DNA of 64,000 nt, from NCBI RefSeq assembly GCF_055900595.2, contig NZ_CM148325.1, one strand, 5' to 3'. Within the stretch, counting starts at the first letter, position 1. Each line of letters starts with the position of its first letter. Positions 10,214 to 56,892 of the stretch are shown here, one piece after another. Both the position numbers and the translations under genes were made by a program. The notes below the pieces were generated by a model. That model saw only the letters and a list, made by a program, of their open reading frames with translations. It was not told where the DNA came from and did no database searches.

Positions 10214-15265
<5,052 letters not shown>

Positions 15266-15277
15266 ATGCCGCCGTAA

Positions 15278-20537
<5,260 letters not shown>

Positions 20538-20578: not shown

Positions 20579-22069
<1,491 letters not shown>

Positions 22070-22298
22070 TTACGCAATATTTAATGCTATTTGTTAACAT
22101 TTGCTGTTATTTTGCACGGTCTATATTGGGTATGGATGTGGTGATCGCTGCGCAAATGCACGCTTTCAGGGCAATAATTGCCTGATTTTTGGGCAACATA
22201 ATTAACGTTTTCGTATAGTAACAGAGTGAAAGTATTTTAAATCAAGGAATTAGATTTGTGCTTTAATCGCAAATTGCGATCTAAATCAAATTAATCGG

Positions 22299-22328
22299 TT
22301 AAAGATAACCGCAGCGGGGCCGACATAA
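22299..22328 (+). promoter_or_regulatory. candidate sigma28 (FliA) promoter for aer
   Basis: TAAAGATA-N11-GCCGACATAA resembles the TAAAGTTT-N11-GCCGATAA consensus, about 50 bp upstream of the aer ATG. Confidence 0.5.
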
Positions 22329-22375
22329 ACTCTGACAAGAAGTTAACAACCATATAACCTGCACAGGACGCGAAC

Positions 22376-23896
22376 ATGTCTTCTCATCCGTATGTCACCC
22401 AGCAAAATACCCCGCTGGCGGACGATACCACTCTGATGTCCACTACCGATCTGCAAAGCTATATCACTCATGCTAATGACACTTTTGTGCAGGTGAGCGG
22501 CTATACCTTGCAGGAGTTACAGGGGCAGCCGCACAATATGGTGCGTCATCCCGATATGCCAAAAGCGGCGTTTGCGGATATGTGGTTCACCCTGAAAAAA
22601 GGGGAGCCCTGGAGCGGCATCGTGAAAAATCGCCGCAAAAATGGCGACCATTATTGGGTGCGGGCCAATGCGGTACCGATGGTGCGCGAGGGAAAAATCA
22701 GTGGCTATATGTCGATTCGTACCCGGGCGACGGATGAAGAGATTGCGGCGGTGGAGCCACTGTACAAAGCGTTGAACGCCGGACGTACCAGTAAGCGTAT
22801 TCATAAAGGCCTGGTGGTGCGTAAAGGCTGGCTGGGAAAACTGCCTTCATTGCCGCTTCGCTGGCGGGCGCGTGGAGTGATGACGCTGATGTTTATCTTG
22901 TTGGCGGCTATGCTTTGGTTTGTTGCTGCCCCGGTGGTGTCATATTTCCTCTGTGCGTTAGTGGTATTGTTAGTAATCGCCTGTTTTGAATGGCAGATTG
23001 TGCGCCCGATAGAAAATGTCGCCCGTCAGGCACTGAAGGTGGCGACCGGAGAACGTAATAGTGTTGAGCATCTGAATCGCAGCGATGAGCTGGGGCTGAC
23101 ATTACGCGCGGTAGGGCAGCTTGGCCTGATGTGCCGTTGGCTAATTAACGATGTCTCGAGCCAGGTGTCCAGTGTCAGAAACGGCAGCGAGACGCTGGCG
23201 AAAGGCACTGATGAACTGAACGAACATACCCAACAGACGGTTGATAATGTTCAGCAAACGGTGGCGACCATGAACCAGATGGCGGCGTCGGTGAAACAGA
23301 ACTCTGCCACGGCGTCGGCTGCCGATAAACTTTCGATCACCGCCAGTAATGCGGCCGTGCAGGGCGGGGAGGCGATGTCCACGGTGATCAAAACGATGGA
23401 CGATATTGCTGACAGTACCCAGCGCATTGGCACCATTACTTCGCTGATTAACGATATTGCGTTTCAGACCAATATTCTGGCCCTGAATGCGGCGGTGGAA
23501 GCGGCGCGTGCCGGAGAACAAGGCAAAGGTTTTGCAGTGGTGGCAGGGGAAGTGCGTCATTTAGCCAGCCGCAGTGCTAATGCCGCCAACGATATTCGCA
23601 AGCTGATTGATGCCAGTGCTGATAAGGTGCAATCCGGTTCGCAGCAGGTACACGCCGCCGGACGGACGATGGAAGATATTGTGGCGCAGGTAAAAAACGT
23701 CACCCAGTTGATAGCTCAGATTAGCCATTCAACGTTGGAACAGTCCGATGGGCTTTCCAGCCTGACCCGTGCAGTGGATGAGCTTAACCTGATCACCCAG
23801 AAAAACGCCGAGTTAGTGGAAGAGAGTGCGCAGGTGTCGGCGATGGTGAAACACCGCGCCAGCCGACTGGAAGACGCGGTGACGGTGCTGCATTAA
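22376..23896 (+). CDS. aer: aerotaxis receptor Aer (PAS-FAD plus MCP signalling domain)
   Basis: 506 aa; N-terminal PAS, central TM hairpin, C-terminal methyl-accepting domain. Confidence 0.93.
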   Translation: MSSHPYVTQQNTPLADDTTLMSTTDLQSYITHANDTFVQVSGYTLQELQGQPHNMVRHPDMPKAAFADMWFTLKKGEPWSGIVKNRRKNGDHYWVRANAVPMVREGKISGYMSIRTRATDEEIAAVEPLYKALNAGRTSKRIHKGLVVRKGWLGKLPSLPLRWRARGVMTLMFILLAAMLWFVAAPVVSYFLCALVVLLVIACFEWQIVRPIENVARQALKVATGERNSVEHLNRSDELGLTLRAVGQLGLMCRWLINDVSSQVSSVRNGSETLAKGTDELNEHTQQTVDNVQQTVATMNQMAASVKQNSATASAADKLSITASNAAVQGGEAMSTVIKTMDDIADSTQRIGTITSLINDIAFQTNILALNAAVEAARAGEQGKGFAVVAGEVRHLASRSANAANDIRKLIDASADKVQSGSQQVHAAGRTMEDIVAQVKNVTQLIAQISHSTLEQSDGLSSLTRAVDELNLITQKNAELVEESAQVSAMVKHRASRLEDAVTVLH

Positions 23897-24644: not shown

Positions 24645-24662
24645 AATTAGATATATCTAATT
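24645..24662. promoter_or_regulatory. perfect 18 bp palindrome AATTAGATATATCTAATT (candidate YqjI operator)
   Basis: exact inverted repeat 19 bp upstream of the yqjI start; related copy TTAGATATATCTGA at 24877-24890 ahead of yqjH. Confidence 0.5.
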
Positions 24663-24726
24663 TATATCTGATGTAAGCATTAGTGCAAGTGTAAAAATGA
24701 TTTTTAAACGTGGACTCATCTCACAC

Positions 24727-55731: not shown

Positions 55732-56892
55732 TTATTCAACAAAAATATGTGGATAAAACCGAGACATATCCTGGGTGATCAATGCACGGTCTTCACGAAT
55801 GCCAATTCCGGCAGGTTGATCGTTCACCAGCCAGCTACCAATCAGCATATAGCTATCGCCGAATTTTGGTAACGGGTGGAATTGCTGAACAATCATCCCT
55901 TCTTCGCCATACGGACCTTCTGCTGCTTCAATGGTTTTGCCGTTCTCAATGATCGACACGTTTGCGCCTTCACGGGAGAAGATCGGTTTAACCACATATT
56001 TTTCCATTTGCGGATGATCATCTTCCGCAAAATAAGCGGGCAGCAGGTTCGGGTGATTCGGGAACATCTCCCACAGTAGCGGCAGAAGCGCTTTGTTGGA
56101 GATAATGCTCTTCCACGCCGGTTCCAGCCAGCGTACGCCTGCATCCTCCAGCTTGGTGGAGAACATCTCACGCAGCATAAATTCCCACGGATACAGCTTG
56201 AACAGGTTAGAAATCACCTGATCCTGTAAATCCGTGAACTGACCTTTTTCGCCTAAACCGATATCGTCGATGTAGAGGAATTCAGTAGCGATTTCAGCTT
56301 CTGTCGCGCAGTCCTGCAAATACTGAATGGTTCCGCGATCTTCCACCGTGTCGCGACAGCAGGTGAGATGCAGCAACTGGAAGCCATACTGTTCACGCAG
56401 CTGGACAAAGCGATCGATCAGCTTCTCTTGCAGACTGTTAAACTGGTCGCTGCCTTCCGGCAGGTTACCGGCGTTAAGCTGATCTTCCAGCCAGATCCAC
56501 TGAAAGAATGCGGCTTCATACAGTGACGTTGGCGTATCGGCGTTATTTTCCAGAAGTTTAGGTTCGCCAGTACCATCCCACGCCAGATCAAGACGCGAAT
56601 AAAGCGATGGCTGGTGAGTCAGCCATGACTGGCGCACAAAACTCCAGGTGTGTTTTGGAATGCGGAATTTGGTCATCAGCTCATCGCTGGCGATCACTTT
56701 TTCAACCACTTTCAGGCACATCTGGTGCAGTTCGGCGGTGACTTCTTCCAGCTTTTCAACCTGGGAGAGGGTCAACTTGTAGTAAGCATCTTCACACCAG
56801 TATGGCTCTCCGTACATGGTGTGAAAATTGAAACCGTATTCGTGGGCTTTTTCGCGCCAGTCCGGACGCTCGGTAATACTGACTCTTTCCAT
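55732..56892 (-). CDS. ygiC: glutathionylspermidine synthase-like ATP-grasp protein YgiC
   Basis: 386 aa. Confidence 0.9.

Follow-up and report, generated by a model that had tools for sequence, protein, structure and literature searches.

The segment at 22261–22332 is very probably the aer regulatory region already known from E. coli K-12, in which a perfect palindrome consists of one CRP half-site and adjoining linker DNA and does not form a functional unit. It lies in the window, the whole stretch of 64,000 nucleotides analysed here. The mechanism is the one described for K-12, in which RNA polymerase carrying FliA (σ28) reads the elements TAAAGATA and GCCGACAT and starts transcription at 22332. 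The promoter is weak alone and needs CRP-cAMP bound to TGCGA-N6-TCAAA centred at −49.5. CRP in turn recruits polymerase via activating region 1 and two α-CTDs placed at approximately −68 and −31.

The window is E. coli chromosome. Of 5426 complete E. coli genomes, 5421 have a match to the 601 bases around the site, and the annotation there shows ygjG (patA), for putrescine aminotransferase, next to aer, for the aerotaxis receptor. The two genes diverge from a 417 bp intergenic region bounded by the patA start at 21958 on the minus strand and the aer ATG at 22376 on the plus strand. Over 21900–22500 the window and K-12 share 97% identity, and in alignment with K-12 MG1655 the sequence from 22265 to the aer ATG is the same, the only nearby substitutions being at 22261 and 22264. 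Since the promoter sequence is shared, experiments performed in K-12 carry over directly. The identity to K-12 over the whole promoter comes from the present analysis, as do the coordinates and the conservation profile described below. The features of the locus are as follows.

20579–21958, minus strand: patA (ygjG) coding sequence, from the ORF list and RefSeq with the start set by alignment to K-12 b3073; given as context only.

22261–22267, plus strand: upstream α-CTD contact, approximate (~6 bp), centred at −68 (22264), with AT-rich TTTAA within GGTTTA; the other α-CTD lies at about −31.

22266–22280, no strand assigned: perfect 7-1-7 palindrome ATCGCAA-A-TTGCGAT (ATCGCAAATTGCGAT), −66 to −52, with its axis at 22273.

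22272–22293, no strand assigned: CRP-cAMP site, the 22-mer AATTGCGATCTAAATCAAATTA, with core TGCGA at 22275–22279, N6 and TCAAA at 22286–22290, centred at 22282.5 (−49.5).

22300–22307, plus strand: σ28 −35 octamer TAAAGATA, −32 to −25.

22319–22326, plus strand: σ28 −10 octamer GCCGACAT, −13 to −6, extending with AA to 22328.

22332, plus strand: aer +1, from published primer extension, its coordinate derived from T−32 = 22300 and CGA (−11 to −9) = 22321–22323.

22332–22375, plus strand: 5' leader of aer, 44 nt long, in which GTTAAC (22342–22347) is conserved and AGGA is the ribosome-binding element.

22376–23896, plus strand: aer coding sequence, a 506-aa aerotaxis receptor, from the ORF list and the RefSeq annotation of matching E. 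coli genomes.

In the leader, the TTA and C of GTTAAC (+11 to +16) are invariant or nearly so in 19 enterobacterial sequences, and the rest is less conserved.

The initial annotation had called a σ28-type promoter upstream of aer, and re-reading the window returned exactly the sequences and positions it gave for the palindrome and the σ28 elements. The call itself was right, being borne out on the same sequence by published mutagenesis, primer extension, in vitro transcription and FliA ChIP-seq. The σ28 promoter at aer is established knowledge and not a new inference; it had been predicted by Park et al. 2001. The two octamers are separated by an 11-nt spacer and the whole element (22300–22326) ends 50 bp 5' of aer. 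It has the properties of a class 3 flagellar (FliA) promoter, with agreement at 12 of 16 consensus positions, the 11-nt spacing, and both the TAAA and CGA cores. Hollands 2010 (PMC2859248) described the aer promoter as TAAAGATA-n11-GCCGACAT with a single start by primer extension. The annotation had expected the start about 7 bp downstream of the −10 element, and the published +1, at a distance of 6 bp from the −10 octamer, agrees with this.

Functional data from the same study (Hollands 2010, PMC2859248) assign this activity to σ28. The substitutions T−32C, A−30T, and G−28A each lower activity 4- to 10-fold, and exchange of CGA for GCT at −11 to −9 brings it to the level of a fliA-minus strain. 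In vitro, the promoter is transcribed and melted by E-σ28 but not by E-σ70, with KMnO4 reactivity from −10 to +4, and CRP stimulates transcription when polymerase is limiting. Fitzgerald 2014 (PMC4183435) reported a FliA ChIP-seq site at aer with the 28-mer motif TAAAGATAACCGCAGCGGGGCCGACATA, along with a fall in aer RNA from 225 to 12 on deletion of fliA. The position of this motif converts to ~22312, and it is the sole listed FliA ChIP site within the span of the window. Separately, an inverted repeat, CGGTTA-AAGA-TAACCG (22296–22311), flanks the −35 element; it is found in E. coli, not in Citrobacter or Enterobacter, and is probably fortuitous.

On sequence alone, neither the σ28 motif nor the palindrome is statistically significant. 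The aer promoter has four mismatches at the 16 specified positions of the FliA consensus TAAAGTTT-N11-GCCGATAA, and at this threshold (≤4 mismatches) the window holds six sites against 5.45 ± 2.2 in dinucleotide shuffles, so there is no enrichment. For the core TAAAG-N14-GCCGA, 0.1 occurrences are expected in the window and two are seen. The window has 28 perfect palindromes with arms ≥7 and a loop of 0–3, where shuffles give 18.7 ± 3.9, and at least one such 7+7 palindrome arises in 13–15% of shuffles of the patA-aer intergenic region. The aer promoter is therefore accepted as real because of the published experiments and its conservation, not because of motif statistics.

These scans also returned sites elsewhere in the window. 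The best match to the FliA consensus, and the only one at ≤3 mismatches, is TAAACTTCTGGAAAATAACGCCGATAC at 56534–56560 on the minus strand (3 mismatches), which lies within the ygiC coding sequence on its sense strand and is not a reported FliA site. The second exact TAAAG-N14-GCCGA is TAAAGATCCAGGTAGTAACGCCGAGGA at 14600–14626 on the plus strand, antisense inside a 477-aa ORF (13785–15218) that is presumably ygjI by the K-12 gene order. This site is absent from the FliA ChIP-seq sites of Fitzgerald 2014 (PMC4183435).

The second component of the region is the CRP site. The sequence TGCGA-TCTAAA-TCAAA (22275–22290) agrees with TGTGA-N6-TCACA at eight of ten core positions, is flanked by AAT and TTA, and is the sole CRP-like match at ≤2 mismatches found by motif scan in the intergenic region. 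Hollands 2010 (PMC2859248) found that aer requires direct activation by CRP from a single site centred 49.5 bp 5' of +1. The same centre, 22282.5, follows from a second distance in that study, in which TAAAGA stands 32 bp away from the CRP site's centre after a 12-bp insertion. EMSA detected one CRP site in the aer200 fragment, which maps to 22241–22399 and has the whole palindrome inside it, and a strain deleted for crp showed no activation even when FliA was provided. No paper containing the sequence of the CRP site came up in a full-text literature search. The left arm of the palindrome was also considered as part of a second CRP site (TGTGC-N5-TCGCA, 22257–22271), which was rejected, since its spacing is 5 instead of 6 and it fails a scan at ≤3 mismatches.

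Activation depends on the position of CRP. In Hollands 2010 (PMC2859248), shifting the CRP site by ±5, −8 or +12 bp abolished σ28-dependent activation; CRP at −41.5 was inactive, and at −61.5 only σ28-independent activity was left. FeBABE footprinting placed α-CTD cleavage at −72/−64 and −38/−30, with the upstream α-CTD site 18.5 bp 5' of the CRP centre. Published work on this very sequence has thus demonstrated the σ28 elements, the start, direct activation by CRP, its position requirement, and the α-CTD contacts. In the left arm, the five outermost bases, ATCGC (−66 to −62), sit between the upstream α-CTD contact and the CRP site.

It has to be considered whether the CRP site is shared with a second regulator. 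The segment 22276–22289 could serve both CRP and its paralogue FNR, whose anaerobic binding to GCGAT-N4-ATCAA would repress patA, aer or both. Nothing else in the intergenic region resembles an FNR site as closely as the corresponding sequence, GCGATCTAAATCAA (8/10 core positions), which has the same centre as the CRP site. Myers 2013 reported an FNR ChIP-seq peak between patA and aer, with ygjG among the operons whose expression changes in an FNR-dependent manner, and placed the top FNR site at −96.5 from the ygjG start. However, the centre of that peak maps to ~22215, ~67 bp from 22276–22289, and a weak FNR-like match at 22232–22245 (7/10) lies nearer to it. FNR may use either of these matches. 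Dual use of the CRP site by FNR is given a low probability, and it would concern that site but not the palindrome.

For the conservation of the palindrome and its surroundings, three sets of sequences were compared. The first comprises 17 enterobacterial aer loci retrieved via the Aer protein, without Salmonella, which were aligned with the window and K-12 to give 19 sequences. The second added named species, including E. fergusonii, C. amalonaticus, and C. sedlakii. The third came from a metagenome scan with a pattern of the CRP core, the spacing, TAAAG, and GCCGA, which yielded 80 loci with 46 distinct variants. All 80 lie 53–56 nt 5' of an aer orthologue whose protein identity is 74–100%. 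Positions fixed by the pattern are conserved by construction in the resulting profile of 76 variants, so that for them only the Aer-retrieved set counts.

In the 19 Aer-retrieved sequences both CRP half-sites and their distance to the promoter are kept, with no insertions or deletions between the CRP site and the −35 element. T−57, G−56, G−54, A−53, C−51, A−47, T−46, and C−45 are invariant in all 19, as are TAAAG and GCCGA and likewise TG.GA and ATC. The two arms of the palindrome differ markedly, the left carrying 0.4–0.8 bits in these sequences and the right 1.5–2 bits. Across the 76 distinct promoter variants the profile is as follows.

−72 to −67, GGTTTA: 1.0–1.7 bits, with 1.5–1.7 bits at −72 and −70 to −68.

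−66 to −62, outer left arm: 0.23–0.54 bits, the lowest conservation between −72 and −33.

−61, left arm: 1.07 bits.

−60, left arm and CRP flank A−60: 1.76 bits.

CRP core, TGCGA...TCAAA: high, but partly fixed by the search pattern, so that only the Aer-retrieved set counts.

This profile is that of two conserved elements, the α-CTD contact and the CRP site, with a free linker between them, and does not resemble that of a symmetric operator.

The distribution of the palindrome among lineages is also uneven. All seven pairs are present in only 17 of the 76 distinct variants. By lineage, E. coli has them all, as do five species of Citrobacter and, from the metagenomes, two lineages that are more distant; the species that retain the palindrome include C. 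amalonaticus and C. sedlakii. Six of the seven pairs are found in Pluralibacter and Pluralibacter-like lineages, isolate RIT691, and one E. coli lineage. Only one to five pairs are left in Enterobacter, Pseudescherichia, Phytobacter, Cedecea, and Pseudocitrobacter, which keep the CRP and σ28 elements. In E. fergusonii, a close relative within the genus, CTGCGATCTCTATCAAA and the σ28 elements are kept, the palindrome is absent, and the sequence upstream of −58 is unrelated. Within E. coli itself, at least 28 of the 30 bases of 22265–22294 are exact in 5252 of 5426 complete genomes, a figure that is little informative at that divergence.

The E. fergusonii sequences were informative in other respects. 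In L082/L083 (1051–1203) there is no relation to the E. coli aer region from −59 upstream. The segment from −38 to −14 is closer to Citrobacter and Enterobacter than to E. coli, and from this likeness the E. coli promoter spacer (ACCGCAGCGGG) and AATCGG appear to be derived.

The initial annotation had proposed the palindrome as a candidate transcription-factor site. A factor does bind there, but it is CRP, centred at 22282.5 and not at the palindrome axis of 22273. The right arm is used, together with TCAAA at 22286–22290, but the left arm is not conserved along with it. The right arm, TTGCGAT (22274–22280), is the upstream CRP half-site plus one flanking T, and the A/T flank of the CRP 22-mer takes in the A at the centre of the palindrome and the final A of its left arm. 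The left arm would have no operator role of its own. As part of the composite explanation favoured here, its outer portion is in all probability a weakly constrained linker that mirrors the half-site by chance in E. coli and Citrobacter.

The alternative is that the palindrome is a true operator of a dimeric regulator, for example of LysR type, centred at −59 in E. coli and Citrobacter. This is very unlikely, as is the reading as a whole in which such a regulator, its site overlapping the upstream half of the CRP site and the upstream α-CTD contact, could compete or cooperate with CRP and the upstream α-CTD and so tune aer or patA. The palindrome is the longest perfect inverted repeat of the intergenic region, and a centre at −59 is typical of an upstream activator or repressor. 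It is also kept at 7/7 pairs in E. coli, the five Citrobacter species, and the two further lineages, in spite of divergence in the spacer next to it; in the non-E. coli genomes that keep the left arm, the −35/−10 spacer is fully diverged. Such retention would fit a degree of constraint acting on −66 to −61 in these lineages, possible sources of which are CRP-induced bending, α-CTD positioning or a lineage-restricted regulator.

Against an operator stands the low conservation of the left arm, whose five outer bases vary more than any others of the whole promoter. The palindrome is moreover missing in E. fergusonii and in the five genera with one to five pairs, all with the CRP and σ28 elements intact. 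An independent operator would be expected to have both arms conserved or covarying, whereas here the left arm is variable and the right arm invariant, which leaves no room for covariation. Nor is the palindrome more frequent than chance predicts, since a 7+7 palindrome is expected in ~15% of such regions (P(≥1) 0.13–0.15), or recurrent, with no added copies in the window. A scan of the window for further copies of the 15-mer at ≤3 mismatches gave four matches against 3.7 expected, none beyond chance. The trg promoter, which has the same CRP/σ28 architecture, is without an upstream inverted half-site in the printed trg100. Taken as a symmetric operator, the 15-mer is not supported by these comparisons.

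The generic LysR box has the form ATC-N9-GAT / T-N11-A, and the 15-mer fits the ATC-N9-GAT version near −59. It resembles LysR-type boxes in this pattern but lacks conservation, and chance alone would give ~16 occurrences of ATC-N9-GAT in 64 kb. That the 15-bp dyad at −66 to −52 is a putative operator, possibly of LysR type, giving a second and lineage-restricted input to aer or patA, is similarly improbable. In the literature searched, no regulator has been reported at the position of the palindrome. Besides the FNR peak and a predicted NagC site described below, that literature gave only H-NS and RpoD SELEX signals and an NtrC ChIP peak near the patA start, none of them on the palindrome. 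A hairpin, terminator or attenuator in a transcript crossing the intergenic region can practically be dismissed despite the perfectly complementary arms, as the single aer start is downstream of the palindrome and, towards patA, the σ54-like promoter is far downstream of it as well, its 1-nt loop is sterically impossible and leaves a stem of 6 bp at best, and it has no T-run after it and is not called by a terminator scan. An Rfam search gave no match at E up to 1.

Several further sites were observed on the patA side of the intergenic region. At 22005–22020 on the minus strand, ~47–62 bp 5' of the patA ATG, TGGCGC-AATCC-CTGCA is a σ54-type match with two mismatches to TGGCAC-N5-TTGCA. It lies inside the ygjG NtrC ChIP-seq interval of Brown et al. 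2014 (K-12 v2 3217421–3217501, equivalent to 21973–22053 in the window). A paper citing RegulonDB places ygjG among the σ54-dependent promoters. Two adjoining NtrC-like dyads, TGCACGCTTTCAGGGCA and TGCCTGATTTTTGGGCA, are found at 22157–22195, with five mismatches each to the consensus. Together they make a second palindrome, GGCAAT-A-ATTGCC (22170–22182), which is conserved in K-12 and which the terminator scan calls only because a T-run comes after it. A weak NagC site, gttaattatcttgcccaaaaatc at 22184–22206, is a published bioinformatic prediction (FITBAR, 2010) and lies off the palindrome.

Perfect or related palindromes also occur in other intergenic regions of the window. Three related ones, AGTAAAATTTTTACT, AGTAAATGCATTTACT, and AGTAAAATTTTACT, are located at 18889–18931 and 20176–20189, between ebgR and ebgA and 5' of ebgR, and look like putative EbgR operators, one of which may serve autoregulation. 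Two perfect palindromes, ATTAGATATATCTAAT and TAAAAATGATTTTTA at 24646–24661 and 24692–24706, lie in the divergent intergenic region of nfeR (yqjI) and nfeF (yqjH), where they may be sites for NfeR or Fur.

The aer promoter is a textbook-level case, being the first σ28 promoter shown to be directly activated by CRP, and from the unusual position of −49.5. The arrangement of CRP at −49.5 with σ28, together with GGTTTA, is conserved 5' of aer across the Enterobacteriaceae, which supports the published model with two α-CTDs. The striking palindrome, made of one real half-site and an unconserved neighbour, is a caution against taking symmetry alone as evidence of an operator.

The window shares with the aer promoter of K-12 all elements and spacings as well as the genes on either side, and there is no difference within 22266–22328. 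The other directly CRP-activated σ28 promoter, that of E. coli trg, has the same spacing between CRP and the σ28 elements, and the same mechanism has been suggested for it (Hollands 2010, PMC2859248). It serves a different gene at another locus, and as the printed trg100 is without the upstream inverted CRP half-site, the palindrome is not part of the shared CRP/σ28 architecture. Class I (−61.5) and Class II (−41.5) σ70 promoters likewise depend on activating region 1 and α-CTD contacts. The downstream juxtaposition of α-CTD and CRP at aer is as in Class I promoters and the upstream one as in Class II. At aer, in contrast, CRP is at −49.5 and the polymerase carries σ28.
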